NCBI GenBank assembly: GCA_051294905.1
Contig: CM119372.1
Location: 4,156,001-4,216,000, forward strand
Direction of reading: 5' to 3'
Length of the DNA: 60,000 bases
From: Botryllus schlosseri
Taxonomy: Eukaryota
How positions within the stretch are numbered: position 1 is the stretch's first letter; every line of letters begins with the position of its first letter. Positions 10,201-50,600 of this stretch are shown piece after piece. Position numbers and translations under genes: made by a program. The notes beneath the pieces are model-generated. The model searched no databases, was not told where the DNA came from, and saw only the letters and a program-made list of their open reading frames with translations.

Positions 10201-13200
10201 ATGGTCGAAACATCGACTGGTGACATGCCTGGATTGGAGTGAGCAGGTATAGCTAGTACATTACCCCCATAGGTGGTGAAAAGTAATCAACTAAGAACAC
10301 TACAAATAGGTGCACTCTTCAGATGTATATTTAGTTACCATGATATAGGGTCAAAACATTTTTTTTGCGGATTCCGGGAGACTGATCAAATTGTTAGGTT
10401 GCCTAAAAATACGCTGCAAACCTCGATTCCAATTGGTAGGTGTAAATGCACTGGAGAGCAGGGCTTTGGAGCAGCCGTAAATTTAAACTGCTCCGGCTCC
10501 GGAGCTTTCTTCTATCATACATTGGCTCCGGCTCCAGCTCCGGAGCCGCATTATTACCACTGCTCCGGCTCCGGCTCTGAAATTATCGAATGGGCCTGTC
10601 TATAATTGAGGTGGCCAACCCGCGGGCCAAATTTGGCCCGCGAGAGAGTTTTGCGTGGCCCGCGAGAGGTAATTTCCTATTATATTATCGAAAATGAATT
10701 GCTCAGATTGTGAAATTGCAACGCCAACCAAATATTACAAGTATGGCTGCGACACTTGGGATGTTGATGACAAAAAAATCAGTTCCGGCGCATTGGCAGA
10801 TCCAGGGTCCAGTCACATTTTCAGTAAATCGTCGTACATTACAATAAACTAAAATAGTAGTGAAATTTTTCTTCACGTTCCGCGTGTTCAATTGTCACAC
10901 GATTTCTTGCTTGGTAGCCTACCCATTACTGAAAATGAAAAAAGTACCCGATTGAGTCCAACCGTATTCGCAATTACGGGAGAAAGTCTTTTCGCGTTTG
11001 CGCTCGCATAACGATCGTCGATGGTGAAATGTAGGCACAAAATGATTGTCGCATATTATCGGAGACCTTCGATATCGATGTGGTCAGACGCCGAATAGTC
11101 GTGTCCTTGCAAACTGAGCCTAGCGGGCGGTATACAGTAGACCCGCAATATACTCAAGTAATAATATTATTGACCTAGTTTGTTTATAAACTTTGAAAAT
11201 TTTACCCGCTTGGCGCGGCTAGTGGACCGCGCACTCGTTCGTGAATTGCATGTGCCCTTTTAGCCGAAAAGGTTGGCCATTCCTGGTCTATATAGAATAC
11301 TAATCTACCCATAGGTTAGTTATCTATAGTAAAGTAATCTAGAGTCTGTCAGCCGTCAGTAACATCCGATGTAGCAACGAAGACATAGGTGCCGTCGTGC
11401 CGGCTTGTGACGTCATAATAAATACTTGTCAATTGTCGATAACATCATAGTTGCACTAGAACGCACTTTACTCCGTGTCATTGCTGTGCACAGCATTAAA
11501 ATTCAGGCCTGCTGTTGAATTATGATAAATCAGCAGATGTGGTTGTTGCATATATAATAGCATCTTATGAAATACGTCGGAGCCGGAGCTACTCCTCAAA
11601 TAACGGGCTCCAGCTCCGGCTCCGGCTGAATTTTTGGTAGAGCTCCGGCTCCGGCTCCAGCTCCGGTGAAAATGCACGGCTCCGGGGCTCCGGCTCCGGC
11701 TCCAAAGCCCTGCTGGAGAGGAGAGAAAATTTTGAATTTATTATAAAAAATTTGAATTCTTTTCTTCCAAATTGTCCAAGTTGTCTAAAAGAAAGATGCT
11801 TAACAATTTTAACTCGCTTCCAACTGGTAGAAGCAAAGTTATTGCAGTTAGAAATTTTGGAATAGCAAAAATTGCCTCGACGGTGAGTAATCCCAGCATT
11901 GATAATGAAAAACTCAAATAACTTTGCCTCTACGAATTGGAATTGCGCCGAATTTGTTTTGCATCGTTTTAATAGACAATTAACCAAATTCATGGGTTGT
12001 CAGTAAAAATTTTTAATTTTTTTTTAAATTTTTTGTAGCAAATTACAAATTTTCAAACTCCTGTGCGTTCACATCTACCAGTCGGAATCGAGCCAAATTT
12101 GGTGTACAGCGTTTTTTTAGGCAAATCAACAAGTCAATCAGTGAATCCCCGGAATCTGGTAAAAAAAGTGTTGTTGAACAACCCGACTGACCGGTGTTCG
12201 GTCAATACCGAGAAAACCATTGCCGAGAAATGAGAATGGACACCACAGAGAATGGACGTTACCGAAAATAGACATTACCGATAATACAGTATATGCAATG
12301 CAGGCATATGTGTTGATTCTCAGATATAAATCTCGACAACGTCTGTCCAAGTAAGTTAGATTCTTGGCATTGGCCATTCTTGGTAATGTCCATAATGGTG
12401 TCTATTCTCGGTAATGGCACTCTATGTAATGTCCGTTCTCGGTAATGGTTTTCTCGGTATTGGTATGGAACCCTAATGACCACCTCTGGTTGCTCCAATA
12501 ACTGGTACGCTTCCGTCTCAACACTGATTTTTCCTACCAAAATTTGCAGTACCCAGAACTTTGTGTTGCATCCTATGGCTCGAACGAAGAAGCCCCATAC
12601 GAACCAGACGGCGTTGCGTTAGTGTGGAACAGTAAATATAAAACAACATCTCCCGAGTGAGTCTATTGCGTTGTTCTTTAAGTCTTGTATATGACTAACA
12701 GGTACCGGCTGTCTTTAGGTACATTTTTCATTGCCAGTCCGCGGTCACAGCTGCTTGTTTCGCAAAATTCCATCCCAATCTGATCGTAGGTGGGACGTAC
12801 AGCGGCCAGATCGTGCTGTGGGACAACAGAACGAAAAAACGCACGCCCGCGCAACGTAGCAAACTTTCTGCATCTGCCCATACGGTATGGGATTGTACTC
12901 TATTGAATTTTCGACCTTCATGTGTTGAATATCGAGCACTTTTCAGCATCCTGTGTTTTGTGTCGATGTGGTGGGAACGCCAAACGCTCATAATCTCATT
13001 TCCATTTCGAATGACGGAAAGCTGTGCGCGTGGAGCCTCGATATGCTCACCCAACCTCAAGTAAGTTACTGTTTTGTGGTGTTGGGACTGGCGCTGACCA
13101 ATATATTGGGCTAATCTATATATCGGGATGGTATGTGTCTCCTTAGAAATCAGAACAAACAACGGGCCCAGAAACTCTGCCATTGGTTTAATGGACGGGA

Positions 13201-16200
13201 GAGGTCGTTCACTCTTTCATTTGTGTCTCAGAGTTGTTGTTTAACAAAATACGCTGACCTAGTTTGTGACAACAGAAAGAGTTTGTGTATAATCTAAAAT
13301 AGTACTTTGAGTCGAAACCCCCTGTTTGCCTCTATTATTCGAAACTTCATGCCTGTGTCGACTTGTGTCGTCCTATTTGGTGATACGGTTGTTGATATTC
13401 AAAGTTCACTTGAAACATCTACCAGTTCCTGACGATTTCCCCTGACGCGTTTCAGTCGAAATTATTTGGGTTTATTTCAATATGCATACCATTATTCAAT
13501 TGTAAATCTCTATATCGGCTAACTCAAGGCGATCTTTTTTGAGTAGTCATGTGATGTCATCATTCGTACAACTGTTCCGACAAGAGAAAGGGTCTTCATT
13601 AGTGCTAGCTTTATGAGGACCAGGACCAGTTCTACAAATCCCTGACGAGGACCACAGGAATTTACTCGTCAGTTAATTCTCTCGTTTGTGAGACATAGGA
13701 AAGGTGCGAATGCGGGGATATTTTCCCTCAAGGGGTGTATTCTAATGTCTGCCACCTACACTAATCAGGTTCACGTTGTCTCGATAATTTAAGTAGAATT
13801 GAGTATATTTAGTGGCTTAAGATTGTAACCATAATAGGCGGTTCTATTGTCTTCATCAACTCGAGACACAATTTACACTGCGATATACAAGACACAGCGC
13901 TGTGCCGATTGCTATTCCACTCCTGTTTACTTAACGATTCATGTTTAGGATTCCATGGAACTGCAGCACAAGCAATCCAAACCAGTTGCAGTCACGTGCA
14001 TGGCATTCCAACCCAACAACGTCAATAACTTTTCCGTGGGTGCCGAAGACGGCTCGGTGTATTCCGCTTGCCGGCATGGAAGGTGACACTTTTCTATGCG
14101 TTCTCAGCTACTCTACTGTCAGACGGTCAAAGTAGTCGGGCTTGACACTCGGGTAATAGTACAAGTAAAGTAGAAGTAGCCATTTCCAAGTCGGCCTGTC
14201 CGACTCAAATTTGTAGAAGTAGAAAATGAAGTTGTAAAAGAAGTAGATAAAGTCGCATACTTTTAGCATCTAATCCGAGGTCACCATTTCTAGAATTGCA
14301 AGATTAGTTTTGCGACTAATGCAAAAAGACCACTCGCCAATCGGTGCAATTTTTTTGCAATATGTTCGGATACCGTGTTACAGACGCTATTTCGCTAGGG
14401 TTACGATATGTCCTATTTTAAGGGGAATGAATAGTCCTCTTTTTTCAATAAATGAACAGCGTCCTTGGAGGACGCTCAAATGTCCTCCTTTTTTGGAATT
14501 TGTCCTCTTCTTTTGGAAAAAGTGTTTAAATTCTTGCCGAAGTTGGACTCCGTCACACTGAACGCCAGGGTTGGCTAAAAACAAACGAAAAATACAGCCG
14601 AACGGCTATTTCGGGAGCGAGATCGGAAAAATCACCTTTTTTTCAAGTCAACCCAATACTATTACTCGAAAAAGTTTCCAAAACAGCCGTTTTCTCCTCC
14701 GGTATTATAGCTTTTCAAAGTTTTAAAAGTTGTCCTCTTGTTCGAATGTCAAAATATGGCGACCCTACATATCGCAAGTTGTTACGGCAAATTCAGTGTG
14801 CAAACAGTGGGCAAAAGTATGTAGTTTTAACTAAAAAGCTGTTCAGTAGAAGTGACCGTGTCCAAACAAAAAATTTTTAATCCAAATTTTGAAAAGTACG
14901 TGGTTTTGCCTAAAAACTAGTCGAACAGAAGTGGGCGTAATCTACTTGAGTCAGTAGGCAAAATCTAGTTGAGTATCCTGAAAAGTGGGAGTACTTCGTT
15001 ACAGACCAACTACTGCTCATCCTAACGACAGACCAACTACTGCTCATCCTAACGACCTTGACATTTTTAGTAAAACCGGAATCAGCGACGCCTTCGACGG
15101 TCATTACGGTCCTGTGACCGGGGTGGATTTCCATCGCGCCACGGGACAGTTGGACTTCTCTCATTTATTTTTAACCTCGTCGTTTGACTGGACGGTGAAA
15201 TTGTGGTCGCTGAAAGTAAGATGTCCCGGTTGTTTGGTCAACATCTTACATTGTTTAAAAATGTCTGTGTTTGTGTAGAACAACAGTAGAAAATGCCTGC
15301 ACTCGTTTGAAGATAATAACGACTACATAATGGACGTCGCGTGGTCGCCTACGCACCCTGCCATGTTTGCCAGCGCGAACGTGTCGGGTCGCATTGATTT
15401 GTGGAATCTGAATACTGATACAGAGGTATGGGGCTGACATTATTACACCAAGCAATGCGAAATGACGGTAATCTATTCTTATCTATGAAAGGTTCCTATG
15501 CTCTGATTTAATTTCAGATCGAATTTCTTGTTTTTCTGAAAATGCTACAGGAGAATTGGATAGTGCGAAACCGGCCAAGCTTGCTGTACAGAAATTTTCC
15601 ATTCCCGTGCTTATGGGAATGACTTTTATTTGATATGAACTGAAATTCAATATCGTGGTATTTCTTTCTAGCCTGGAATTCAATAATTTAATTGAATAAT
15701 TGAAATCCTTGTCTAATTACGCAAAAAGCTGTATAGCTGTAATTTTAACCCTAATTTACCTAACTGTGGGTATGGGTTGATCCTTATGTAAGAGCTCGAA
15801 CTTGTTTGCTACACAGCATGTTTTGTTCTGCAGATTCCGGCAGTTTCGGTGAATACTGATAGTGGCGCGGCCGTCAGCAGAATTAGATGGAACCCGGCTG
15901 GTACACAAATAGCCGCTGGCGACGATATGGGGACTGTGCACGTGTTCGACATTGGAGAGGTAAAGATTTGCCATAGACAATAAGCCAGTCTGTCGGATCG
16001 ACGTTCAGATTCTATGTCGTTCCTGTATCGAGGACATATATAACGGCTGACCAGTGACCAATGACCAGAGGTTGTTAACGTAATCAGTGTTGGTACTCAA
16101 GTAAAGGTAGAAGTAACGCCACTAAACTTGACTGAATTTCAAGTAGAAGTAGTCATATCCAAGACATCAAAACTACTTCAAATTGTAGTTGAAAACGAAA

Positions 16201-17250
16201 GTTATCAAAACAACTAAAGTAGGTAGTCTCAGAAGTAGATTTGGTTGAGAGGTCGCATAATTTAAGCAGTTAGTCATAGATGACAGGGCTGTAACCAAGT
16301 CACATGGTTCCGAGTCGCAAGTCAATCCCACTTTTGTTGTTTTGACTCGAGTAAAGTCCAAGTCCTCGAGCAGTGGTCCGAGTCATTCTGTTGGCTGTCC
16401 AATTTCGAGTTGAAATCTTGTCAAACCCACTTTTTGTAACTCTGCTTGGTGATATGGAATGTTTCGTATTCATCATATAATAGTTTTCCTCACATTAACA
16501 GTTTCTGGTCGCATTTTCTAGTACCATGTCAATAGACGAAATACCAATCGTGTGGTAACTTTACTATTCTTCGAAATTACAATAAAATGGCCTGTCTTGG
16601 CCGTCTGAGTCTCGATTCATATGACTTGGTCCGAGTCATGCGCAATGACTTGAGTACAAGTCGAGTCAAAACAGATATTGACTCAAGTCGGGTCGAGTCA
16701 TTGTCCGTATTTCAAGAAAATGACTAGAAACAATTCGAGTCACCAAAAAATTGCGACTCGAGTCATTACAACCCTGGTGAAGGGCTTATTTTGAAATTTC
16801 AGGAAGCATTTTCGTGACTGACAAAAATTGGCTAATGGCAGTATGGCACTACGGATAGGTGCAATATTTTAAATTATGTTCAATTGTTTGGTTCCCATGA
16901 TACATGGGTTAATTCACCCAATAGTTGTGACAATTTCACTCATTAAACTGATGTAAGCATATCCCTATACTAACTAAAAGCAAATAGTTTTGCAAAAAAT
17001 TGTGAAGTGGAAGTACTCTAAACAACCATTTGATAAGTGCTATAGGTAAAAGCTCAAGAACTTTACTTGACCACTTCTGCCAATGACTATGTCAGTACCA
17101 GATATATTTACACTATATAATTGTTTTTTTTTACAGCAAATTGCTTCTCCGCGTAGTGATGAGTGGTCTCGTTTTGTGCACACGCTCGCAGAAATTAAGA
17201 GTAATGAAGCGGACCAAGAGGAAGGTTCAGCACACAAGCAGAAATTCTAA
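4269..17250 (+). CDS. DYNC1I: Cytoplasmic dynein 1 intermediate chain (WD40), 15 coding exons, ~595 aa
   Basis: Exons: 4269-4361, 5432-5537, 6119-6197, 9107-9228, 9289-9369, 9934-10087, 10147-10246, 12550-12656, 12719-12884, 12947-13060, 13949-14082, 15071-15215, 15279-15425, 15834-15959, 17137-17250. All introns are GT-AG and the frame is continuous. Motifs: N-terminal [15 protein letters not shown] (p150/NudE-binding helix), LC8 site SYAKETQTP, roadblock region RELSEEEK...FMERAL, and WD40 repeats [29 protein letters not shown] and [12 protein letters not shown]. Confidence 0.96.
4840..5001 (+). repeat. Probable retroposon 3' tail (AATAAA followed by a (CT)n microsatellite)
   Basis: GAATAAATTCA is followed directly by (CT)~10 at 4982-5001. 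The left boundary is uncertain. Confidence 0.35.
6931..7827. mobile_element. Palindromic MITE with ~55-bp inverted ends, interrupted by a family-A MITE
   Basis: GCGCTTCTTCGTTTTCCGATCGCAACAAGCCAGTGTTCCCCCATGGCACC matches GGTGTCATGGGGAACACTGGCTTGCTGTGATCGTACAACAAAGAAGCGC in inverted orientation. Internal TAGGGTT/AACCCTA motifs are present. Confidence 0.65.
7170..7701 (+). mobile_element. hAT-type MITE, family A (GACTCGAGTC-rich)
   Basis: TIR CAGAGTTGTAA...TTACAACCCTG with an 8-bp near-TSD TCCACCGC/CCCACCGC. Homologous copies occur at ~16284-16776, 22507-23037, ~25666-26127, ~30708-31034 and ~33437-33977 (inverted). Confidence 0.85.
10459..11712. mobile_element. hAT-type MITE with (GGCTCC)n subterminal repeats
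   Basis: Perfect TIR CAGGGCTTTGGAGC...GCTCCAAAGCCCTG and perfect 8-bp TSD CTGGAGAG (10451-10458, 11713-11720). Confidence 0.92.
10606..11285. mobile_element. Charlie-like hAT MITE nested in 10459-11712
   Basis: Ends TTGAGGTGGCCAACC...GGTTGGCCATTCCTG, TSD GTCTATAA/GTCTATAT, and GGCCCGCG subterminal motifs. Confidence 0.75.
12195..12472. mobile_element. Small palindromic MITE (TACCGAGAA/TTCTCGGTA repeats)
   Basis: CAATACCGAGAAAACCATTGCCGAGAA is inverted against TTCTCGGTAATGGTTTTCTCGGTATTG. Confidence 0.6.
13190..13495 (+). mobile_element. Degenerate Penelope-like 3' end (GIY-YIG C-terminal remnant plus pLTR)
   Basis: CAACAGAAAGAGTTTGTGTATAATCTAAAATAGTAC matches the [12 protein letters not shown] end of the 28122-28557 ORF. 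It is followed by pLTR sequence with a decayed hammerhead (CTGACGC at 13442). Confidence 0.7.
14396..14767. mobile_element. hAT (Tip100-like) MITE
   Basis: TIR TAGGGTTACGATAT...ATATGGCGACCCTA with near-TSD TATTTCGC/CATATCGC. Homologous to 39913-40240. Confidence 0.75.
15001..15054 (+). repeat. Perfect 27-bp tandem duplication next to a splice acceptor
   Basis: ACAGACCAACTACTGCTCATCCTAACG occurs twice, ending 16 bp before the exon at 15071. Confidence 0.95.
16284..16776 (+). mobile_element. hAT-type MITE family A
   Basis: CAGGGCTGTAACCAAGTCA...GAGTCATTACAACCCTG; homologous to 7170-7701. Confidence 0.8.
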
Positions 17251-21500: not shown

Positions 21501-24500
21501 TTCTCTCACAAATAAATTGACCGCAAACGAAGTGATCGAAGCTTACAGCTTACGTTGTCGAAAACTAGTATAGAGATTTAGCAAAATGATATAGTATAGA
21601 AATTTAACAAAATGACTATTTGTTCTCTCACAAATAAATTGACCGCAAACGAAGTGATCGAAGCTTACAGCTTACGTTGTCGAAAACTAGTATAGTAAAG
21701 AAATTAACAAAATGACTATTTCTGTTCTCTGTTCCAAACCTCTTGTTTTATTTAAATAGAATTATAATATAGTTTATATAGTCCTCAACCATTGGCCTAG
21801 GCTCGGATTGTATCATATCAATTTGTAAAGGGGTATGTATGGCATCTTATCCATTCGGTTTTGTATTCTCTATTTTGGCTGGTAACTATAAACTGATGCT
21901 ATGCAATTACTTACGTAGTTTAACAGTGCTACGAATATGTGAGCGATACAGCCCCTTCTTGCGTGTAAATTTAAGTCTATATCCGTTCATCGGTTCAGAA
22001 TCAATGACCACTCAATATGTATTTCAGAGATCTAGCAAAATTCAATGATGTAATTATGCCTCATATTCCGAAAAGGCAACTTTGACTTGAATTGTGACTT
22101 GACTTGACTTGACTCGACCTGACTCGAGTCACCTCCAAAAATCGAGTGACTTGACTTGACTCAAGTCACCTTCGAAAATCGATTGACTTGACTTGACTCG
22201 AGTCAAAATGTTCAATGACTCGAATTGACTCGTGACTCGAAGGTAGTGACTTGATCCCAACACTGTCACACACACGTAAAAATATATTGTTTGGCCCGAC
22301 AAAGAAAATATTGCATCTTTCATCAGAATTACTTTGATTTCATAATCGTAAGTCTTTCATGGCGATGCTGCAAGTCGATTAGCTTTTGGAAATTACACTT
22401 CCGTTAACACAACATGCAAACTGCATAATCTGGTGTTGAATGCAGTGTTGTCAAACAAGTCACAAGGTCCCTAGTCACAACTCAATTCTAGTTTTATAGT
22501 TTTAACCAGAGTTGTAACCAGGTCACAAGGCTCCGAGTCACAAGTCAATCTCACTTTATAGTTTTGACTCGAGTCAAGTTGAGTCATTTTCAATTCACCA
22601 CCGAGTCAAGTCCGAGTCAAGTCAGCGATCAGAGGGTCGAGTCTGAGTTATGGTATAATAACTCGAGTCCAAGTCATTGTGTTGACCGCTCAGTTTCCAG
22701 TTAAAATCTTGTTCACCCACTTTTTATAACTCTGATTGGTGATATCGAATGGTTCGCATTTATAACATACTAATTTTCCTCACTATTAGCAGTTTCTGGT
22801 TGCATTTTCAAGTATCAGCACCAATAAAAGAAATCCCAATAGTGTGGTTACTTCACTATTCTTCGAAATTACAATGAAATGTTGGTCTTGGCCGTCTGAG
22901 TCTCGAGTCATATGTCTTGGTTTAAGTTATGTGCAATCAATGACTCGAGTTGAGTCATTTCCGTATTTTGAGTAAATGACTCAAGTCAAGTCGAGTCTTC
23001 AGAAAATCGTGACTCGAGTCGAGTCATTGCAACCCTGGTTTTGACTCGAGTCAGTTTCAATCTACCATCGAGTCCAGTCCAAGTCGGGGTTTAAAGGTTA
23101 GAGTCCATATCACAGCGTTGAGACTCGAGTCCAAGTTGTTGTATTTACTGTTCAATCCTGTTCAACTGACTTTTTTACAACTGTTTGGGTGATATTTAAT
23201 TCCTTGCATTCATAATATAGTAATTTTCCTCAATTTACAGAGTTTTAGGCCTATTTTCAAAACAGGAGCACTGATAGACGAAATACCAATAATGTGGTAA
23301 CTTTACTATTCTTCGAAGTTTCAATGAAATGCCCGTCTTGGCAGTCCTAGTCTCAAGTCATATCAATTGGTCGACTGAGTCTTGAGTTTTTGGAACAAGT
23401 GAAATTACCTTGTTAGTGACCAGTGACCCCTCCTGAGCTATAAAGCACTGGTTTTCAAATGTATTATATCGGTTGTGTGTTTCAGGGTCGGCAAATTTTT
23501 GACGATGAAGATGTTGAGCGTACGTGCGAGGAATTGCTATGCTTGATTGGCTCCGATCGCACCAGCGTGACCAACTTATTAGAGTGTACAGGAGATGAGC
23601 AAATGAAGCTGATATACAATGCCATACCTGATCAGTTGAAATTGTTCATTGAAAGTTGCCTCGAGGTTGATGTGACAAAACGGTAACTATGTTATATGTT
23701 GGATACTGTGCTGGGTTAATGTAGTAATGGATGGTGATCTAAAATAATGCATTAAACATGAATGTTCTATTCGCCCAGATTATTCGAAATTTCATTCCGG
23801 GGACGTCATATTTTGTGATACGATTGTTGATATACAATATTCTTTCCAATTCTCTACTAGTTGCTGTTATTTACTACCTCTGACTAGTGTCAGCCGAAAA
23901 TATTCATTTTTTTTTTCAACATGAATATATCATTCAATTGTGTGTTGATATTTTCTCTGTAATAATATAGTCTACTGCAGTGTAAAATTTTATCATTAGA
24001 CCATCAGCCAAACAGCTGCTTGCCTTCGACCTGTTCTCAACAATAGAGCAGAAAAATATGAAGACCCACGGTGAGCGGTCCACGTTATTTACAAACGGGT
24101 GCGATTGTTCCGGCCTGGAATTACCCACTTCGAAGGACACAGCTGCGGCAAGACACATGGGTTAGCTCATTCGCTTATTCGTTGTGTCATTTTCGAAAAT
24201 GTACTGGACAGCATGAAATTTTTTACAGAACCAGTCCTGGAACTGGAATACCCCGAAATTTGGCACTTGTGGAAACTTGCCGGTGGCGATGTGTTCACAG
24301 AAGTCCGAAAAAGCAACACGGTCCATTCTGTCCCGCCTATTTTAGATTTACCCCTGTGAGTATCCGAGTGTTTTCACTTTTGGAGCTGTGCTGTTGTGTG
24401 TATGCTGTATATCTCCCAGTCTTGAAAACAAATTGCAATTTATGTGAAAGCTGTTCATATCTCTATAGGTACATTAGATGGGTAATTCTGTCTCTGCAAA

Positions 24501-27500
24501 ATGTTATCGACAGATTTCTCATCGTTGGGACTCGGGATAGGCCGTTGACACTTCCATTTTGTGCCTTGGGGTCGACTTTTATCAAAATACACCGACCTAG
24601 TTTGTGCCAGTTACATTATAGCCTAATCATCCACTGTCCCACTCCCGTTGCAAAGCACTATGACCCCCGCATCCACGAACATTAGTTTTTGGGATTTTAG
24701 CTCCACTATGGGGAGGAATAAATATAGCTGTGTTAGCGACTTCATTCTGGGCCAGCTTCAAGCAATTCGTAACATGCTTTCGGTGAATGGGATACTGCAG
24801 AGGAACGTAAAAAAAATTTTTATTATTTATTTTTTATAACTAATTCCTTACTAATGAATTCTACGATCATGTCATCATAATAACACGATCGCCAATATTA
24901 AATGTGGTGTGACGAATAAAAAAATTGAATTTCAAGACGTGGTCTTGATATATAGCCTCAAATATCAAATCAAATACTTGTGTCATGATTTTCGGTCCCT
25001 GCACCCTCCAAAGGACACACAATCTCACCGAGCGAGCCAAAAATAGCATGCTTTGCCATATCCTGATAATCGTTTGTGCTAGAAAGCTAGTTTTCGGCTT
25101 GAAAGCTGCAGAAGTGGTATCTCATTTACGTAGAACTTTGCCTTAAAAATGTACAGAAGAAAATTTACAATCAAATTACTGATTTTTTTATAGTAAAATT
25201 ATGCACTGAATGTGATGTCACATTGTGTGCTAGTTAGCGCCCTTCCAATGCCAGTCATATTTTCTTCCTGTCTACTTGTATGCGTAATCGTGGGGGCCTT
25301 TTTCAGATCTATGTCACGTTTCGGCGAAGTTATCAGCCTGGAATCTTCAGTCGCACATTTGTATGACTCGTCCACAATCGTTTTGACTTTAGATGCCTTG
25401 AAGCAACGTTTAGAGGTGAGACGCACGGGTTTTTAGTGGTCTTCGGATTGGTTTAAATTATTTTTCAGGATGTCACCCCAGAGTCCTATTATCCGCTTGT
25501 GGAAGTCATGGATGACGGAAAAGAGACAGAAGAAGTGGTCACGCCTATGAAGGTATGCGCCACTGATATATTTAGTGGGGGTATCTAGATGTACTAGCTG
25601 ATATTTAACTATCATTCGCTAAACCGGTAATTTTAACCTTTTGTTTTACATATCTTGCCCTTTTAGTATGGTTGCAACAAAGTCACAAGTCAATTTCTTT
25701 TTTATAGTCTTGACTCGAGTCAAGTCAAGTCATTTTCAATTCACCACCGAGTCAAGTCTGAGTCCAAGTCATTATTGTTCACTGTTCAGTTTTGAGTTCA
25801 ATGCGTTTCAACCCACTTTTTTCAACTCCGCTCGAGTGATATAGAATATTTCGCATTCATAATGTTGGAGGTTTCCTCAGTCCTAACAGCTTCTCTCCCT
25901 ATTTGCCAAGTACCAGGACTGATAGACGAAATACCAATAATTTGGTCACTTTACTATTCTTTGAAGTTACAATTAAATATCTGTCTTGGCCGTTCTAGTC
26001 AATGACTCGAGTACAAGTCGAATCAATACACAAATTGACTCGGGTCGAGTCATTTTACGCATTCGAAAAAATGAGTCGAGTCAATTTGAGTGGCCAAAAA
26101 ATCATGACTTGAGTCATTACAACCCTGCCTTTTAGTAAATATAGCTTTTAGTTATACAGACTCAATACTCAAATTGGTTCCATGCCGCAGATTTGATATA
26201 TTTCTTTTTGAAAAGTGCACCTCTGCCTGTGTTACGTGTACCGTCATCAATCATTTAGTGTTAGTCTCAGTGTGATGTGAATCCAGCTGTAATCTTCTGA
26301 TAGGTTTTCAAGTCCACATTAAGTGAAAATGCTCATCACTAGTCCTAGATTGAGAGAATCAATGGCTGTCATCTTGTCAAGGAACTGGATGTAGTTTAGG
26401 CTGTTGAAGCTGAATCCGGTTGTGTTTGGATAGATGCGAAGCTGTGCAAAGTTCTCTGACTATTTGACTTTGTAAGCTTTTTTCTGATGCTCCAGGATCC
26501 CACTTCCGCTTTACCTCTTGTTATCAAAGAAAACGACATCGAATATCAACTGGACCGGATTATATTGTACAAACGAATACTCCTGGTATGCGCGTCTACC
26601 GCTCCCATGATTTCATAGCCTATAACTTTACTGTTGCACTGCAGGGATATCCTCATTTGAAGGAGAAATTATGGAAAGAATCGAGAATTGATATACCTCC
26701 TCATTTAAGGGGTAAGGCCTGGGCGGCACTGCTTGACGTAACGGTGAGTAAGTTGGTTTTTTGATCTAAGTCAAATATTACTTACCTCTTTCTCTGCATA
26801 TAATATATAAATATAATATTATATATGTTGGTATTTACCTACTCAAACTCACTGTATTAAAATACGTTTTAATATCGATGTATGATCTCTTCACAATGTT
26901 AATCTTTATTGTTTCATACAAATATTTTGTCTGATCTAATATTATGGCAAATTTCCTTTCAGATTCGATTACTTAGCACTCGTTACAATTAGTGAAAATA
27001 TGTGCGATTGATGTTAAATTGACGATTACCCCTGACGAGTGTCAGCCGAAAATATTGGGTTGTTTCGGTATGAAAATAGTATTCAATTGGGTGTTGAAGT
27101 TCTGTACCCCCCCAGAAGCTCTTCGGATTGATTTTTACAAATATATTCTGTATATTTTTTATTTTTTCTACATTATTTCCTATACGCAATATTAAGTTGT
27201 TTTCTTAGCATATTTATTCCGAATCGTTTCTCTATGTGTATGTGTGTGAGTTTAATGTATAATGTGTATGCATAGGCGCCGAACGCTCATTTTCCTTAGG
27301 CATGCGAGTTCGATGACGTCACAAAGGAATGACGTCATGATCCGACGGAATTGATAATTAGGGATAATATAGCATCAATTCATGAGGGTTAAGTGCCTGC
27401 ATAAGTGCCGATTATGCAATATCTGCGTGTTAACAAACTTGCGCGTATGATAAGCTTGTCAACGAGTCCGGAAGTGCTGTCAATTAGCGAGTCCCTGATC

Positions 27501-30500
27501 GCTAGCGAACAATTAAATACGCCGCTTATCAACGCGTAATACGTAACCTCGGCGACGATTTGCGCAAGGCAAAATGTCTGAGTTGTTATGGCATCTGTTC
27601 TAAAATGGCACCGATTTCAGGTTGTTGAAACCTTTCCCGTCTTTTACAACTCAAGCCTTGACAGTTGACACACATCTTCTGATGGTTATGTTTAGGTATT
27701 AGCGGGATTCACTTACGCATGCACGGCGCACTCACAATCGCACATGTCTGCGGACATTCGATGTCATTCAGGTTAGCGATGTCGCTCTTTAATTACAATC
27801 GCTAACCAACAAACACCTAACGGCATTGTCACCAAGCCATCGAAAGATTGGAGCTAGCGCATGCTAGGCTCGAGAGATGGGAGCCAACGCATGCTCGGCT
27901 CTAGACGCGATAGTTAGCCAGCGATGATATCTTTCGTACCAGGCCTGTTGCAGATGCGATTGTACAATTAAATAGTATATTCATATTGAAATGAACCCGA
28001 ATATTTTCGGCTGACACTCGTCAGGGGTAATCGTCAGCAACTAGTAGAGAATTGGAAAGAACATTGTATATCAACAATCGTATCACAAAATATGACGTCA
28101 CCAGCATGAAAGAGAGAGCGTTCAATGTACTATTTTTAGGTGGTACACGAACTCCTTTTGTTGACAGAGTTTTGGTTGGTGTATTTTGATAAAAGTTGAT
28201 TCCAAGGCACACAAATGGAATTGTGAGCGACCTCGCCCTACGATTCGAAATCGGTCGTCTCGATAATTATTCGCACAAATCGGATTATCCAACAGATGTT
28301 TGCCGATGGCAGAATTAATGGCCTTTGATCGATCAGCATCAATCTCAAGTGGATGAGTTGAGGGTGAGCTTTTCACTGAGCGTGTTCTGATAAATCTGGG
28401 GACATGTTGGTTTATGCGGTCCTGCAGACGTCTTGACGTTCTTCCCACGTAGCCACAATCACAGTGGCACCTATATTCGTACACTACATTACTTTGTTGA
28501 AGTGCAGGAAGCATGTCTTTGCGTGTTGAAGGGAGCAGTTGTGTTGTTGTATAAATGTTGGTGACGTCATATTTTGTGATACGATTGTTGATATACAATG
28601 TTCTTTCCAATTCTCTACTAGTTGCTGACGATTACCCCTGACGAGTGTCAGCCGAAAATATTCGGATTCATTTCAATATGAATATACTATTTAATTGTAT
28701 ATTGAAGTTCTGTACCTCCAAGAAACTCTTCAGATGCGATTGTGTAGGCAAGCGATAATAGCGTGTGCGCCAATGCAGATGCGAATGTGCGGGCAGCGAT
28801 GGCACCGGGCCTACTGCTGATGTGATTGTTCATCATGCTCAAGCGAGTGAAACTAGGCTTGTGGTAGACGCGATAAAGCAGGCAAGCGTCCCAAGCGATG
28901 ATTGCCGAACGCACGGCAATCAATGACACAATTTCGCGATCATCTCAGCGGGAGATCGTGTCGCGTTACATTGTGCACAGACATATCTCGTTAATTGGCA
29001 ACGCGCTTGTAGCTAAGTGGCCGCGCGCAACGGGTTACCTCGCTCACATAAGCGGTAGCAGGTAATGTCGTAAACGGAAATACATTGCGATTCGTTCTAA
29101 ATAACACAATCAGGGATTATGCCGATTCATGCCGAACCGAATTCTAGGCATGCCGAACCGAATTCTAGGCATGCCGCATGCCTAAAAAAATGTCTAGGTA
29201 TGCCTGGCTTGCCTTGCATGCCCAGGTTCGGCGCCCATGTGTGTATGTAATGAGCTATAGCTTGCACCGCATACTCCTGGTCTTCTAGTCTACATTGCCA
29301 TTTTGTTATATATCTTTTTCCTTGTCTTCCGGTGTGACGAATAAAAACATATCCATCTATTTATCCATCTATCTATCTTTCAGGGCGATGTCAAGTCCGA
29401 ATATATCAAGCTAGACAAGGACACGCCTCTCGGTTCAGACCGACAGATTGCAGTTGATATTCCGCGATGCCATCAGTACGACCCTGTGTTGTCCTCTCCA
29501 ACGGCGCACGCTAAATTCAAACGCGTGTTGAAAGCGTGGTTAAAGTCTCATCAACACCTTTCTTACTGGCAAGGTAGGATGGACGCAGGGATGGTCAGTA
29601 GGGATGTTCAAAATTAACTTTTTTTTCCCAAAATTCTAGCGATTCACTTGTTACATCATCAGGTTGTCTAAAGAAAACGTTACACGCCAAATTTGGCTCA
29701 ATTCCAACCAATGGAAGCCGCCGCAGACCAATTTGAAATTCCGGCCATTTTGGGAAATAATAATATTTACGGTGGCAAATTCGTCACTACGACATGACGT
29801 GATATCGTGTTCCGTCTATGCCTATCTGGAAGTGATGCTTTTTCCGCTTGTTTCCATCTTGACAAGGTTCTGTGATATAGTTTGGATAACAGCCATTCAA
29901 TGAAGAATAAATATCACACTGATTACCTGAAAATTTTGGTAACAATCAATTATCAATTTCTCTCAAACGTAGGTGGTTACGTTGGTCAGACTACTTCCAC
30001 TTGACAGTTTTTGGCGCAAAACTATCTTTGTGTAGTAGAGTGTAGTTTAGCGATCATCCATCCATGAATGCATTACGTCCTGCGTGAATTACTCGTGAAT
30101 AGATAAGGTCTTACACCACGCACCACTTACACACCACTTACACGCAACTACTTGCATAACGTTGAATAAACTGTATTGTCTTGGATATTATATCTGACTC
30201 GAAGAACTCTACGCAAGGTTACAGGAATTACCGAAATGAAGTATTCAGACAGCTCTAACCTATGACATAAGGTTAGCTACAATTCTGATACAGATCAACC
30301 CAGAGACTGTGACATATTGCTCCACAATTCCTTTATTACCGCAGCATCATCTGTGAGTCAAATTACGATTACAACTGGATAAAATAGCCCATTTATTTTG
30401 GTAACAGTATATATTTTCAAAATTTGCAGCGATTTGTAGCATACGTTTAGCAGTAAATCGTATGCGGTGCCTTGTTCAGGGCTGGATTCGCTATGCGCGG

Positions 30501-33500
30501 CGTTCTTGCATTTGAACTTCAACGCGGAGCATCTGGCGTGGGCCTCCATGTCGCAGTTCATCGACAAGTATCTTCACGAGTTCTTCTTGAAGGACAATTC
30601 CGCCATTATTCAAGGTGAATATTTGGAAATTCGTGTATTTCCTCGATTTTCACAGTACCATAAGGTGCAAAACAGGTATTTGGCATTTTACGATTCAAAA
30701 TTTTGCTGTCAAGTCACAATGTTCCTAGTCACAAGTCAATCTCACTTATATAGTTTTGAATCGAGTCAAGTCGAGTCATTTTCAATTCACCACCGAGTCA
30801 AGCCCGCTAGAAGTGGGTAGAGTCTGAGTCTGAAATTACAATGAAACATCGGTCTTGGCCGTCTGAGTCTCGAGTCATATGACTTGGTTCGAGTCATCCG
30901 CAATGACTCGAGTCCAAGTCGAGCCAATACACAGATTGACTCGAGTCGAGTCATTTCCGTATTTTGAGAAATTTCTCGAGTCATCAGAAAATGGTGACTC
31001 GAGTCGAGTCATGACTCGAGTCATTACAACCATGCTCTACGACGTATAACACCGCAACAATAATTTCAGAATATCTGGCCGTCTTCCGTCACCTGATCGC
31101 GTTCCACGAACCGGACCTTTTCAACCATCTAGACGAGATCGGTTTCATACCCGAGCTCTACTCCATACCCTGGTTCCTCACCATGTTCACTCGTGAGTGG
31201 CAGACTTGGTTAATTACATAATTCTACATTAGACTAATTAGTGCAAAATGCCGATAATCCAATTACAATCTAATTTGTGAGATTTTTCTACACTCTCATT
31301 TTGATATTATTTCTGCTTTTTCTTGAAAACGCTACAGGTGAACTGTATAGTGCAAATCGAGCCAAGCTTGATCTACAGACATCTGCCGTTCTCATGCTCA
31401 CGAGTTCTGATTTGACATGCACTGAACTTGATTTCGTTCTAGTTTGGAATTATGTGAATTCAACAATTCTAATTACAATCTCATTTATACAAAACTTGCA
31501 ATAATTCTAATCTAATTTGTAATAGCTGACGATTTTCTGGTTGTACCAATCTGGCAAGCTGTACAAAGTACATTGTACACACATTGGTTGCGCCGCGTTC
31601 AATTCACAGTCAGCTCTGTGTTTCAGACGTGTTCCCGCTGCACAAGATCGTGCATTTGTGGGACACGCTGCTGCTGGGAAACTCGTCATTCCCGTTGTGC
31701 GTGGGCGTAGCCATCTTGAAGCAGCTCAAGTCGCAGCTCATGGAATTCGACTTCAACGAGTGCATCCTCATGTTTTCCGACTTGCCAGGTACGGATTTAC
31801 GGCGGCTTTACGCGAACATATCCCGTTGGTTACCATTGAAGTTGGCACTTGGTGGGACTTAATCATAGCCCTGACCTAACCCCTAACCCGAATACAGTAA
31901 CACATACATGCCAAGTGCCGTATATCACAATCCACACTCGTATTCAGTGAAACATTCGTTTTGGAATTTGTTGATAGTACAATAATGATGCATCTCTTTC
32001 ATAGTCATTACATTTTTAATGTCGAGTTCGCGAAGTATCATATATGGCAATTCACGCTGATATTTAATGAAGCATTTATTCTCGAATTAATTCATGCACT
32101 ATTGAGAGTTGCTTTCATACGAATAACAATATTAGTTATCGGTAGCGCGATTTTTTTTACCTAAAAAGAGGAATATTTTGACCTAAAAAATCAAAATTTT
32201 GACTTTTGTTGACCTAAACAAACTGAAATTTGACCAAATTTTTACCTGACTTTTGCAAATTAGGTGTTTTCCCGGATAATGTTGAAATTGTACCACTTAT
32301 CTTCATTTCTGGTTGGAACTGGCTGTCCTAACGAAGTAATTTGGCCTGAAAAGAACGTTTTTGGATTATAAACAGACAAATTTTTACATTTTCACAGTAT
32401 TTTATCGGAATCTGGCCCTATGAAGAATTCCAGTACTTACATCACGCATTATGGTAGAAATAATTAAAATTTGTTGTAGTACAACGAGAAATACTTTCCT
32501 ACATTCTTTGGTAGAAAGTGTCTGTCCTTACTAAGTAGCTTGTCAAGAATGGAGAACGAACGTTCAACAGCAGCAGTTGTTGGCTGACAACACTCAAGGT
32601 GTGCGTACCGTACAGTGCTGGTGACACAGCGTGTTGCTTCATTCTGGCAATGTTGTCTACATCACAATTTTCATCATGCGCTTCTTGATAAGAATAATGC
32701 AATGCCCAATAAGTCTTTCTTCAGTTAAGATATTGCGGTACGTTGACCATAACACCATGTCTACCTATTTGTTTTATCTGACCGTTTATGATTCACAATG
32801 AACAGACTATTAGCCGTTTACAACGGTAGGCCTATAAAGTAGGCTACAAGCTGTAAAATATCAAATGATAAGTTCACCGACAGTGCAAAATCTACGATAC
32901 AAACGAAATGCAGACGTCAAAGAAATTCTGACTTTGTAAACAATTTTGACAGATTTTGACCTATCGCTACAATTTTGACAAAATTTTGACAAATTTTGAC
33001 AAGGCAAAAAAATTCGCTCAAGTTATCAGTGTAACTTCTGCTGTATGAGTCGCGTCTGTGTCTTAACCTCAACCCCCACGGGCCCGACTAGCAGCAAACC
33101 CCTGGGGTTCACTTGAACCCCGGTTAAGAGCCACTGTAGTAGTATTTTTGCGTCCGTAACGAAAATGCACCCTGCGGCCTGCCTTGACAGTATTAATATC
33201 GAACTATTTCAGAAATCAACATCGACAACGTGGTTCAAATTTCGATAACGCTCTTCTGCGCCACCCCGAAGAGCGCCAGCTACCGCACGCACGCGAAAAG
33301 AAAGGCGGCCGACGGGAAGAAGAACGTCTCCTATTACAGCGAGGATTATAACACGGCTGCGCACGACGAACTGGTAGGTTTTCCAACGAACAGGCAGATT
33401 GTGGGACTTAAGTCACGTAATGGGTTGGGCGTAGCAGGATTGTAACGACTCGTGTTGTGATTTTTTTGGCGACTCGACTTGACTCGAGTCATTTTTTCAT

Positions 33501-36500
33501 ATGCGTAAAATGACTCGACTCAAGTCAACTTGAGTCATTGTACAATACTCGAACCAAGTCATATGTCTTGAGACTAGGGCGTCCAAGACGGACATTTCAT
33601 TGTAACTTCGGAGAATAGTAAAGTCACCACACGATTGGTATTTCGTCTATCAGTCCTGATACTTGGAAAATAGGGCCAGAAACTGTTAAGACTGAGGAAA
33701 ATTACTATGTTCGGGTGATATAGAATGGTTAGCATTCATAACGGAGTTGGAAAAAGTGAATTGCACCATATTGAACTGAAAACTGAATAGTGACCATATA
33801 ATGACTTGGATTCAGACTCGATTCAAAACACTGTGACTCGAAATCGACCCCCCTCCAGCTTGGACTCGGACTTGACTCGGTGGTGAATTGAAAATGACTC
33901 GACTTGACTCTAGTCGAAACTATAAAAGCGAGATTGACTTGTGACTCGGAACCTTGTGACTTGGTTGCAAACCTGGGGCATAGTTAGCTAGTCCGCCCAA
34001 CGTTTGAGCATGCGACACAATGTAAAGTGACAGTTGAGCGGTGACTTTATAATCACAAAGTGAACCCTAACAGCACCCTGCCCCCGCCCCAAACCAAAGT
34101 TGGACCCCTACAGTTAGAATGATAGCTACATTTTTTTACCGAATTAGATATAAATTAGAATTACTGACTTGGCAAAAACTTGGAAATTGAATTAAGTTCA
34201 GAATTAGAAAAATATACTCTTGAAATTCAAGCTCTCTTCATGCCAAATCATTGTACACCAAGCTTGGCTGGTTTCGCACTATACATTTTTCCTGAAGCAT
34301 CGTAAGGGAAACCAGAAATTCGATCAGAATTAAAATCGGAGCAGGGAAACATTTCACGAATTCGGTTTGCATTAGATCACCGACATTTTCTTCATTTAGT
34401 CCACTTAAACAACAGAAATTATCTAGTTCTCGAAGTCCGCATTTTCCGAAAAAGCACAAAATCGTGCAGAATTAAAATTATAACGTAGAAACATTTGACT
34501 AATTAGATTACCAGCATTTCGCTTAAATTAGTCTATTACTAGACAACTAGAATTATCTAATAGTCCAATTCTGCTTTCTTGCAGTCGATGAGCGAGGTGC
34601 CTCTACACGTTTTGCGAGAGGAGGTCAGTCCGAGGATATCGGCCGACGACATGATCCAACTCTGCGAGCTGAGGGGCCCGACGCAGTCCAAGACGCCGGC
34701 GAAAAGGTCGTCCAAAAAGGCGAAGCCCAAAATCACCATCATAGACGTCAGGTATCCGCAATGCCTTACTTTTAATTCGCAATTCTCGATGAGATATCGA
34801 GTAGAAATTTGCAGAGTTACATCTGCTTGGTGTTGATATTCTAGCTAGAATCTAGGTAGCATGTTAAGAACATTCCACTAAGCGGGCGGCATCATCCTTC
34901 ACTGCACGCATATTCAAAACAAGGCTAGTCATATTGCAACGTTAGTGCCGCTAGATGTCACTGTAGCGACTTAATCATCCTTCCGAACCGGACTTGGACA
35001 ATTAGATAATTATATCTTTCTAAATCAGCGGTTCCCAACCTTTTTGAATGTCGGAGCCGCATTTCAAACTTCAGAGTACGCACGGAGCCGCTTGGAAACA
35101 CTCGAGTAGGCTACTCATAACGAAAATTTGAAGGTATTTAGCCTACCTCTGGATCTTACCATCCAGTTAATTCAAAAGCAGGGACATAGACTTCTATAGA
35201 TTCTATATCGGTTATTTTAGCATCGATTAATGCAGATTGGCGAGTGCTACATACATTGAAATAAACTGAAAATGCATATCGTTACTACAACATATTATTA
35301 TGCCGTTATGTGATAGCTCTTCATACATTCCAGCACTTGATGCACGAATTTGCTGGGGATTATACGCTGAGTAATAATGGAATTATTGCAATTGATACTC
35401 GACTATGAGCCGTTATTTTGGTGCTAGTAAAATTGTGTCGACATTTACTCTTCACAGAGACGATATAGAAAGGTTTGTGACCAGCAGAACCCAAGATATG
35501 TCCTTATCTGACGGGTAGGCCTATTCATCCACGCGTCTGACGTCAGTCTGCAAGAATTCTCTTTCCCGGACGTTAGAAGCGGCCTTGGACGGCTTTAGAC
35601 CTAACTAATAACGCTCATTTTAGCATTCATATACAGAAATTTACTATAACTATTCATAGAAACGAACAACAACTGTAGTCTATTATATTTTTTTGGCATA
35701 TTGAGAAGTCAATAAGAGCCGCAAGAAGGCTACCTTGGAGCCGCGGTATTTCTTTGCTCCAATTCTAATTCTAATGTATTCTGGAAAAAACTGTAGTTAT
35801 AATTCTGATCTAGTCTAATTTGGTAAAATGTGTAGCTCTAATTGTAATCTAATTAGAAAAAAATCTGTCTTTATCATTCTAATCTAGTGTAATTATTGAT
35901 CTCATTAGTATAACAAGTCTAATTAGAATCGCTGAATTCAGGAAAACGACGAATTAGATTAGAACTAAAATTTGAGCAAGGAAACATTTGACGAATTAGA
36001 TTGGAATTAGCTTACCGGCATTTCGCTCTAATTTAGGGAAATTCGCCAACTAGAAATATCTAGCTGCCCAGGTGTGGTTTCAAGGCTTCCACGTTAGGAT
36101 TCCCGGAATATTCCCTCCATAATTCTCCACGCACATCCCAAAACCCGTCCATATGCCGCCGATCTTTTGCAAAATCTCAACGCGCGCCTGCCTTTCTACG
36201 AAGCGTGGCGCCGTCGATGCGCGTTGCCTGCATATGTTGGCGCCGCGCGCGCGTCGGACTTCGAAGAAATACTCTGGCGTGTTTTTGGCGTTCGTGCATG
36301 TGATTTTTATCGACTGTTTCTGGATGAGGTCAAGATATTCATTTCTATTTGCCTGCAATCTTACGCGAAAAGGGTGTGCATTCACACCCTTGTATCATCG
36401 GTGATATACGGGTGTAGATATACACCCGTGGCCTACGAAACCACAAATCACCCCGGACTTGCAGCACGGTATAAAACAAACACGACATTATAATCCAAAT

Positions 36501-47666: not shown

Positions 47667-50600
47667 ATGACCGAATCGACTGACACCCCTCGCGCATATC
47701 TGGGGACCACCTTCCCGCCAAATTTGACTTCGGACCAATCGTACAGAACATACGAGGCCGCCGCGGAAACAGTCGTCTACCAACCGAGTGTGATGCCGCC
47801 AGCGGTTCAGGCTCCATATTACTACCAATATTCCTATCAGTCTCCATCTGTTCCAGGTAAGAAGTTGGCAGTTTCGAATTTCATCTTAGCAGCGGACTCT
47901 GGTGCGGCGAAACGCAAAATGTGCTCTTGCCCTCGGTCTGATCTTGAGTGGAAATCAGTGTGACGCCACGTGGTACATGCCGTCAAAATTGCTAGCGAAC
48001 ACTATTGCTGAGCCCCACTTTTCAGTTTGTTTTCTAGCGACGTATTTTTGCCAACTGTCCGTGTATTGAACCTACAATTAAAACGCGTGTCGAGATATAA
48101 CTGATGTCACGTCCGCTTTTTATACCCTTCGGTTGAGGGCTCTTTATAGTGATCTCTTCTATAAAGTGTTGCTGATGTAGGCTCCGTATTTCCATGCCTG
48201 GGACGTCCTATTTGGTGATACGAGTTTCTCCGAACTACATATTATCACCTAAACTGCGTTCGAAGCGTATTACTAAAACGTACACTCGGCTATGCGGCAG
48301 CTACCAACCAGTGACCTTGAAACGTATGATTTGACGGTAAAATAAAACAAACCTATATCCCAAAGATGATTTAAGACGTTACGTGGTAGCTCTCCACAGG
48401 ACATCGACTTCCTTAATCCGCCGCCATTTTAGACATTTGCCTATCTGAAATTTCCGTACGGTATCTATAGATATAGCTATAGCTAAGCACATATGTTCGA
48501 TGCTCAATAGCAAGAAAATGATCAGAGTACGTGGTATTTGCATGGTGGCCGGCTTGGAAGAAGATTATTTCGTAAATTCAATCGTTTATAAATGTTTCAT
48601 CATAGGATTGCGATACCAGTGAAAGACAGAACGGTGCGGAAACAAGAGATGGCTGTTTCTCAAACACAAAAACGCACTAAAGCAGTGGTTCTCAACCGGG
48701 GGTCCGCGAAACCTCTGAAGTTGTAAAATGAATGATAACCTAATTTTCACTTTTTTATCAATTAAAGAAATGCATGAGACAGTTTCGCCTAATAATTGCG
48801 AAAACTTTAGGACTCACATCAATGAAATGGTCGTCTGATGTGAAATATCCGACTTTGCAAACTCATTTCAATTGTCAAATTACCAATAGTCTGCCAATGC
48901 AATCATATTCCTGCTTAGAGTTGTTTTATTGGGGTTTGTGGGAAAATTAATTGTTGGAGATAGCATGGTCAAACAGCGTGTCTTCGAAACGTTTGCAAAA
49001 CATTTTAGATTTAGAGTTGTCAGTCTCAGTAAATAAATAAGTAATCGATTGAATTACAAATTCCAGAATTTTTTTCCCAATGTCCCAATCCATTTTCTCC
49101 CGCGATATAACCACTGAATAACTTCAAGATGCTAGTTAGAAATGACTAGGCTGGACGTGATATTTCATTAAAAATACACACCAAAGGCTGTCGTCGGAAG
49201 CGTTTCGCGTTAATATCTTTGTGAAAATGGATTTTTTGCACTCGTTAATATCAAATCGAATACGCGTGTTTCCAAGATAATAAATACAGCTGTGGAGTTC
49301 GCTTCGAAATAATATAAGTCTACCCATGGGGTGACATTTTCAAGAAAAGTCATTTTGTAATATCACTAGCCTACAACTAATAGTTGCACGAGACAGATGA
49401 CGGTTGCACGATAATTGAGCTAATTTTGAACGGAAACTTGAGGGGGTCCGTGAAGACAAAAAGGTCGAGACCACTGCACTAAAGTACTATGAAGTGAAAG
49501 AGGCATACGTACGAAATTACACGAATTTCATTTCGCATAAACATTTGAGAATAGATTCGTTGGTATGCGTGCGTATAGCTAATATGCCCGTACTTATAGA
49601 ATATCATTTCACAAGATGTAAAACTGCAACCACGAAGTCACTTTCTTGTGTTGAAATCAATCTCTCAAGCTCCGCCCGTCCTTTTCGCTTTTTCAAATTC
49701 GCATAGCCAAGACATGAATCCTGTAAGTTATTGCTTACAAATCATTTCTCAATTTTCAAGAACCTAGGCAGCCCGCACACATTCCGCACCGCAGAGATTC
49801 CGCACCACCCTGAATATTCCACATGCATGTGTCTGTATATCTGTAAATATGCGGTTGTATCAATTGTGTACCATCTAAAAATAGTATATTAAGCTGAAGC
49901 GCTCTCTTCGCCCCGATGATTCGAAATTTCATGATTGTGACGTCACATTTTGTGATACGATTGTTGTTTCTAATTCTCTACTAGTAGCTGACGATTACCC
50001 CTGACGAGTTAGGGTTCATTTCAATATAAATATGCTCTTCGGTTATATATATGTAATTCATGGATCATGTTGGCTTATTTAATGTGAAGTCCATGTCACT
50101 AAGGCTAAACGTTGTATACTTATTTATTAGATTCGAATTCCCTATAATATATAATGTAATAGAATTTTACTATTACTAAAAACAAATTGTGATATTACAG
50201 GAACGCTGGGCAGCCCGGTCACCTCATACTTTCCCCACCACCCCGAATACGGAACATACCACCATGGCATGGACTGGAATCACGTCCCAGTACACGAACA
50301 AAACGGCGACCGTGACTTGGACGCCGTCGCTGCCGAAGAACACAACGTTGCCTCCGTACCTCAAGACTCTATCGTACTACCGGTGGTAGATAAACCCGAC
50401 TATCTCCACGATCAAGAGATCGCGCGGTCCAAAGACAGTACGTACGATGTGCGCTACAGAGATTCGGCCGTGGCTTGTAAATTGAGCTCTCTGAAACAAG
50501 AAAAAACGTCGGACATAGACTCTCACGAAGACCCGGACAAATTTTCGTCGCCGGAACGAGTTCAAGTGCACGGTCAGCACAATCCCGCCCCGGTCACGGA

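Follow-up and report, generated by a model that had tools for sequence, protein, structure and literature searches.

We describe a Penelope-like element (PLE) insertion whose pLTRs carry a putative hammerhead ribozyme of unusual build, namely type I with a one-pair helix II, a 6- to 7-bp pseudoknot that joins loop II to the leader, and a stem III that is short and palindromic, an architecture shown by covariation across related loci. The insertion lies in an intron within a 60,000-nt stretch of Botryllus schlosseri DNA (here called the window; all positions count from its first nucleotide). Judged from its sequence, the insertion itself appears ordinary; that its unusual feature is the pseudoknot variant of the pLTR hammerhead is well supported. 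We consider quite probable the full reading, in which a 5'-truncated copy of an endonuclease-positive (EN+) PLE was retrotransposed into the site by way of two nicks, bringing with it a pseudoknotted type I hammerhead that is part of the pLTR and is here most likely inert. Coordinates are collected in Table 1.

Table 1. Features of the insertion and of the intron that holds it
Feature	Position	Strand	Details
Hammerhead, intact copy	27995..28038	-	Leader 28038-28032; stem I 5' strand 28028-28025; core 28024-28018; G10.1 28017; loop II 28016-28010; C11.1 28009; GAAA 28008-28005; palindrome to U16.1 28000; C17 27999; stem I 3' strand 27998-27995
Hammerhead, host-strand copy	28624..28667	+	Leader 28624-28630; core 28638-28644; loop II 28646-28652; C17 28663
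Left target-site duplication (TSD)	27951..27963		Repeat identity; uninterrupted form seen as 780-nt skip in two runs
3' pLTR without tail, stopping after codon 7 of the next ORF	27964..28107	- (element sense)	
Rest of 3' UTR, stop codon to arm	28108..28121	-	Upstream of 28111 unlike most family copies
C-terminal GIY-YIG endonuclease fragment	28122..28556	-	144 codons plus stop; two-Cys two-His motif
Inverted 5'-truncated pLTR (element 5' end)	28555..28698	+	
First 18 codons of element ORF (pLTR end plus tail)	28678..28731	+	Aligned to N-termini of P0004, P0114 and P0072
Tail	28699..28730	+	32 nt, possibly 1-2 nt longer into the TSD
Right TSD	28731..28743		Repeat identity
Inferred GT-AG intron, phase 0, of kinase-TBC-rhodanese gene	26744..29383	+	Exon-like frames, splice sites
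Host repeat holding the nested element	27273..29237		About 1.2 kb without the element; depth, terminal repeats
Older pLTR-plus-tail relic, same family and same intron	27020..27128	+	C17 lost

An earlier note on this DNA had marked one hammerhead motif in each arm of the insert, and both were found as written, with the cut correctly predicted after AUAUUC, at 27999/27998 (-) and 28663/28664 (+). The left copy has the CUGANGA core, GAAA, NUH, and a 4-bp stem I; the right copy, on the host strand, has one stem I mismatch, an A at 28666 that breaks one pair (C-A). The label of a minimal hammerhead of the published PLE type did not hold, as there is no extra nucleotide after A9 and no multi-pair helix II, and a covarying pseudoknot is present instead. 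Helix II is a single G10.1-C11.1 pair around a 7-nt loop, with G10.1 directly after A9, and loop II is complementary to a 7-nt segment lying 7 nt upstream of the core, 5' of stem I. A search of 27500-29200 against Rfam gave no match at E values up to 10. An upstream CUGACGA-like copy was considered as the catalytic core and rejected, having neither stem I nor the 10.1-11.1 pair. Elsewhere in the window (10191-10215), CUGACGA is followed by G, seven bases, C, and GAAA; this stretch is unrelated to the Penelope family, has no clear stem I, and is decayed or a chance likeness.

Related loci (n = 21) were collected by protein similarity alone. The motif was present in 16, and six or seven of the seven leader-loop positions pair in 15 of these 16. 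Leader and loop read GCUGACG/UGUCAGC in the window, UCUGACG/UGUCAGA in L001, UGACGCG/UGCGUCA in L002, UCUAGCG/AGCUAGA in L003, and UCCGACG/UGUCGGA in the L005 group, and the endonucleases (ENs) of these loci and the window are 49 to 60% mutually identical. Covariation was scored on an alignment (A2) of 12 rows, comprising the 2 window copies and 10 of the 20 element-linked locus hits and representing about five independent families. Left out were near-duplicates (L006, L007, L018, L019+, and both copies of L020), L004 (motif split by an insertion), L012 (core mutated), and L010+ and L013+ (decayed, with a loop mismatch and 6 of 7 pairs); pattern hits L005- and L007- were taken as chance. Across A2, 97.9% of the cells of the leader-loop helix pair, with double changes at five of the seven pairs; the covariation score was reached by none of 500 shuffles, registers slid along the sequence paired at most 40.6%, and G10.1 and C11.1 were invariant (12/12 rows). 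Within single families the shuffle P value for leader-loop pairing was 0.004 to 0.067, and among viral matches to the same core pattern none of 32 (21 distinct) had six Watson-Crick pairs. The stem III palindromes vary as whole units, AAUAUU in the window and AAGCUU or AACGUU in relatives, which bears out the short palindromic stem III proposed earlier and fits the dimer model. The L004 family and L001 use a U3-A8 core pair. L004 (758-1320) is itself a related element in which an insertion, with its duplicated target inside the core, splits the hammerhead.

Nearest-neighbour folding, which is unable to draw pseudoknots, favours two local hairpins hiding both catalytic boxes and gives stem I a probability of 0.08 in the intact copy. 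The core-masking hairpin is possible in 81.7% of A2 cells and was rejected as a conserved switch, having no double changes and a score reached by 416 of 500 shuffles. The A-U-only palindrome duplex is nearly neutral (-0.2 kcal/mol). Activity would be expected in a tandem master transcript, where the pseudoknot would pre-organise the enzyme half and the palindrome would bring two pLTR copies together, probably assisted by protein, for a cut 14 nt upstream of the AUG. One fragmented transcriptome sequencing run, an insensitive test, showed no pile-up of read starts or ends; in RNA run X24 the strands were about equal over the pLTR, and 98% of reads continued into other sequence.

The place of the predicted cut suggests another use for the motif, that it mainly makes or marks the 5' end from which the element ORF is translated, and does not chiefly serve to release a unit-length template. 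From the cut to the AUG there are 14 nt here and 3 to 52 nt in related loci, and type I hammerheads with a 0- to 2-bp helix II precede ORFs of fungal RNA viruses, where a translation role has been proposed (PMC13725137). We regard this use as possible but rather unlikely as the main one: the distance from cut to AUG is not conserved, and a part in translation is compatible with our main explanation and not exclusive of it. A further alternative is that the helix of leader and loop II acts as an off switch or a protein-binding fold: with all seven loop bases paired, G10.1-C11.1 would be blocked and the ribozyme would stay inactive until an element protein or a ribosome remodels it. Its energy (-9.6 kcal/mol against a one-pair stem), the negligible probability of G10.1-C11.1 in folding, and a PAc hammerhead that cut only with protein and was dispensable for insertion in vitro (PMC11167929) would suit such a switch. 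We nevertheless judge it improbable, given the invariance of G10.1 and C11.1 in all rows, the high activity of a solved PK hammerhead that has this one pair as well as a pseudoknot of 6 bp (Zhan 2024; PMC11300833; PDB 8YDC), and the 20- to over 100-fold loss of activity when the pseudoknot of a tested one-pair-stem II hammerhead was disrupted (Perreault 2011; PMC3088659).

Around the insertion, exon-like frames on the + strand resemble first kinase, then TBC, then rhodanese models, each match of a single exon staying under the curated cut-off; four of eight candidate frames match these families. From this domain order we take the gene to be TBCK, and the placement of the insert in a TBCK intron, proposed earlier, stands in the form of an intron of a kinase-TBC-rhodanese gene with GT-AG sites. 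Searches of solved structures did not return TBCK itself. In X24, exon depth was about 1 or less, and none of the 15 joints listed, out of 1208, was a splice joint. In run X9, which carries the same species label, exon-spanning contigs over 26501-26724 differ at 15 to 19 of 225 positions, which suggests very high polymorphism or a divergent population. Other exon-like frames in the window resemble a WD40 protein (9930-13064) and a homeobox C-terminal exon (57550-58230). The former presumably belong to a dynein intermediate chain.

That the insert places a self-cleaving motif on both strands of the intron, as the earlier note put it, is formally true, but only the + copy stands in the pre-mRNA, with its C-A mismatch in stem I and with predicted pairing to the other arm (mean probability, 0.97). 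The insert has an MFE of -375 kcal/mol, and its arms give a 144-bp duplex. Cutting of host RNA by the host-strand hammerhead is predicted to be unlikely because of this mismatch and of burial in the arm-to-arm duplex. The window also contains seven older fragments of the family (9844-9923, 13197-13507, 23790-23948, 24508-24610, 27020-27128, 48190-48223, and 49866-50050), at about 72 to 95% identity and about one per 9 kb; in none of the five that overlap the hammerhead is the motif intact, all having core changes or deletions, which fits neutral decay after insertion. It is very unlikely that a working self-cleaving RNA in TBCK pre-mRNA affects the host gene: the + copy keeps all core positions, and another sense copy whose enzyme half is intact (the relic at 27032) lies 1.6 kb upstream in the same intron and might assist it, but stem I is mismatched at 28666, the complement of the motif is transcribed first and forms the 144-bp duplex, and older copies decay freely.

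The element was identified from its 144-aa EN fragment, on which the Pfam GIY-YIG match is weak (E = 0.068, under the cut-off). Longer homologues are 51 to 57% identical to the fragment (5/5 among the matches listed); one of them, P0004 (826 aa), has reverse transcriptase (RT) and EN with an RVT_1 match and is 53% identical. A search of protein cluster representatives with the fragment returned 2434 proteins at E values up to 0.001, the best 97% identical. P0156 (374 aa), a member of that 97%-identity cluster, matches the fragment at 95% identity, and RT motifs precede its EN (RVT_1 profile match, E = 1.2e-5, under the cut-off), so the Penelope family has RT-bearing copies, as had been expected. 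None of the eight protein clusters looked up carried a name. The full-length homologues carry a DKG motif, and the EN fragment has two Cys between the VYEY and YVG motifs plus two His, all kept in the protein alignment (A1). EN+ PLEs are defined by a C-terminal GIY-YIG with CCHH, and a CX2-5CxxC linker finger serves as a clade criterion (PMC8557442, the source of our clade criteria; ENs were compared by eye with the supplementary EN alignment of Craig 2021). The linker finger of Neptune and Nematis was absent in all six proteins checked, P0156 included. Presence of CCHH and absence of the linker point to an EN+ PLE of Penelope/Poseidon type. Further EN+ PLE features present are a pLTR overlapping the ORF start, a tail (optional in such elements, at 30 to 40 nt), an inverted 5' copy, and a TSD, whose length varies among them; RT and EN in one ORF are seen in P0156 and full-length homologues and not in the truncated window copy. 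The Penelope-like identity first proposed is therefore upheld by the homologues, the CCHH motif, and the RT-bearing relative, and the window copy is evidently a 5'-truncated member of a very abundant EN+ PLE family. Viral contigs searched with the protein alignment gave 81 candidates, none confirmed. On one contig of a bacterial metagenome-assembled genome (L018-L020), an 830-bp inverted-pLTR Penelope unit is amplified within a 3.6-kb tandem repeat; this contig is probably animal DNA binned into a bacterial genome.

The insert between the TSD copies spans 27964-28730 (767 bp). The two 13-bp copies, CAGATGCGATTGT, are identical (13/13), and no third copy of the 13-mer exists in the window; by chance, a given position would match with a probability of 1.5e-8. 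The right TSD's first 1 to 2 nt read on as the element's own ORF and many family copies stop at 28731-28732, so the true target duplication is 11 to 13 bp. The inverted arms differ at 2 of 144 positions (27996/28666 and 28104/28558) and are separated by a 447-nt spacer, and the tail follows the right arm only. These measures agree with the anatomy given in the earlier note (13-bp TSD, 767-bp insert, arms of about 140 bp, and tail of about 30 bp), and the arm alignment with its one-sided tail confirms an inverted pLTR. The minus-strand frame is uninterrupted from the arm junction to a TGA at 28122; of the "uninterrupted GIY-YIG fragment" the openness thus stood, but three codons found in P0156, the closest RT-bearing relative, are missing. 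Loose ends fall at 28111 in all four runs; together with relics in the window, they mark the point upstream of which the 3' UTR departs from most family copies. Scarcely credible is an origin of the hairpin shape by post-insertion recombination, fold-back repair, or faulty assembly: none of the listed contig pieces spans either insertion junction, but a perfect TSD encloses the whole unit, the tail is confined to one arm, and the same layout with opposed motifs occurs in 4 of the 21 related loci (L010, L013, L019, and L020) and in published PLEs.

Retrotransposition through two nicks, our preferred origin, is suggested by the element ends. From the AUG at 28678, the right arm and tail give 18 codons aligning with N-termini of full-length homologues, and the left arm ends after codon 7; both ends of the insert are thus element 3' ends, one after codon 7 and the other after codon 18. 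Related loci end near codons 7 to 10 (L008, L010 inverted, L012, and L019+) or after L-F codons near position 18 (L001, L004, L005, L007, L011, and L013+), and L019 has a tail on its inverted copy and none on its direct copy, as in the window. Public contigs and reads of the family stop at 28731-28732, with unrelated flanks beyond. A Poseidon protein nicks and extends both strands in vitro, and its reverse transcription starts at two internal sites bounding the tail (Frangieh et al.; PMC11167929), which the two end classes fit. By analogy with that element, we infer that an RT-GIY-YIG protein would nick both target strands 11 to 13 nt apart; reverse transcription of a read-through pLTR-ORF transcript would then be primed at both nicks, from the two internal start sites, to give one cDNA of about 590 nt and another of about 176 nt, joined head to head, probably via 3 to 4 nt of microhomology. 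Through the paired end points, conserved at about codons 7 and 18, a model of two start sites drawn from one lizard element comes to cover several further families.

The host repeat ends in imperfect inverted repeats of 12 bp, is flanked by 8-bp sequences that agree at 6 of 8 positions, and is high in copy by depth. By its termini and flanks we take it to be a non-autonomous, hAT-like element. A joint skipping 780 nt was present in two of four runs and confirms the TSD reading; it was rejected as proof of polymorphism, since its flanks are high-copy repeat and its depth (171 in X1) is about 15 times single copy. Of the claim of a young insertion, youth is retained and polymorphism is not, the empty-site joint being attributable to host-repeat paralogues: near-identical arms, a perfect TSD, and an open frame suggest that the insertion is fairly recent. 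Over the pLTR bin, three runs gave summed contig depths of 1.83 million, 3.86 million, and 115 thousand, compared with some 4 to 135 over exons, values that put family copies on the order of 10^4 to 10^5, although summed depth is no copy number. Two other repeats were seen in the window: an array of a unit of about 168 bp at 330-3925, arranged as one large inverted repeat with its centre near 2308 (1620 bp, 94%), and an abundant repeat, dispersed and about 500 bp long, in which a short GAGTC/GACTC-type unit recurs (7169-7702, 16284-16778, 22452-23372, 25681-26128, 30702-31035, and 33434-33976).

PLE hammerheads are only weakly active in vitro, which has been linked to missing tertiary contacts. 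A covarying pseudoknot in a PLE lineage implies selection on the fold that organises the active site; it predicts that constructs need the 5' leader, and compensatory mutants allow a direct test. More speculatively, a widespread Penelope/Poseidon lineage may carry an undescribed hammerhead in which helix II, a single pair, is locked by a pseudoknot with a bare 5' leader and is combined with a dimer-only palindromic stem III. Such a pre-folded, fast enzyme half would be gated only by palindrome pairing or element protein, would make its cut shortly before the ORF begins, and might act in trans. If this tentative view is right, the motif would contrast with the sluggish, tertiary-free minimal PLE hammerheads, some 10^4 to 10^5 dispersed copies could permit action in trans, and the pseudoknot would offer a clean mutational handle on what PLE hammerheads do.

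Beside known EN+ PLEs (Penelope/Poseidon; PMC3846280, PMC8557442, and PMC11167929), the insertion anatomy shows no substantive difference; the window copy has no direct upstream pLTR and no RT, owing to truncation, and its EN Cys spacing is C-x-C. The anatomy (inverted pLTR, tail, TSD, and opposed hammerheads) is already published: Arkhipova et al. (2013; PMC3846280) described an inverted pLTR, a 31-bp tail extending the ORF start, and 8- to 10-bp TSDs, and Cervera and De la Pena (2014; PMC4209133) reported hammerhead pairs on opposite strands 100 to 700 bp apart. The minimal PLE hammerheads of the latter share with the window motif the type I form, short stem I, conserved G10.1-C11.1, short palindromic stem III, opposite-strand pairs at such distances, and the U3-A8 core variant (here in relatives L001 and L004). 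They differ in that A9 is followed by an additional nucleotide in their consensus and helix II has several pairs, whereas the window motif has no such nucleotide and a single pair (12/12 rows); no one-pair helix II was present in the rows compared of their supplementary alignment, and the searchable supplement file does not use the word "pseudoknot". According to two reviews, tertiary interactions are absent, or usually absent, from PLE hammerheads (PMC7761336 and PMC6155905). A one-pair helix II falls outside the published minimal descriptor and Rfam, and such elements may be under-counted as hammerhead carriers.

The 2017 study of Lunse et al. is said to mention leader-loop II pseudoknots as a general hammerhead feature. 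The short-stem-III PLE hammerheads of Lunse, Weinberg, and Breaker, as cited in PMC6765202, share the PLE association, the short palindromic stem III, and the dimer model. No description of a leader-loop II pseudoknot in PLE hammerheads was found in the passages searched, which included PMC6765202, PMC10085705, PMC13725137, and bioRxiv 10.64898/2026.07.22.740005 and did not extend to Lunse 2017 and Arkhipova 2017. Pseudoknots of loop II with the stem I side are established elsewhere; the PLE variant may be new. Its nearest likeness is the PK hammerhead (PMC11300833), in which helix II is likewise the G10.1-C11.1 pair, loop II enters a 6-bp pseudoknot on the stem I side, and a terminal G-A or G-U closes one helix end. 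In that crystal loop II pairs with the loop of a 5-bp helix IV, with an A-minor triplex, whereas in the window motif its partner is a bare 5' leader, around which no conserved enclosing stem was seen by eye in A2, and stem III is a bare palindrome requiring a second copy.
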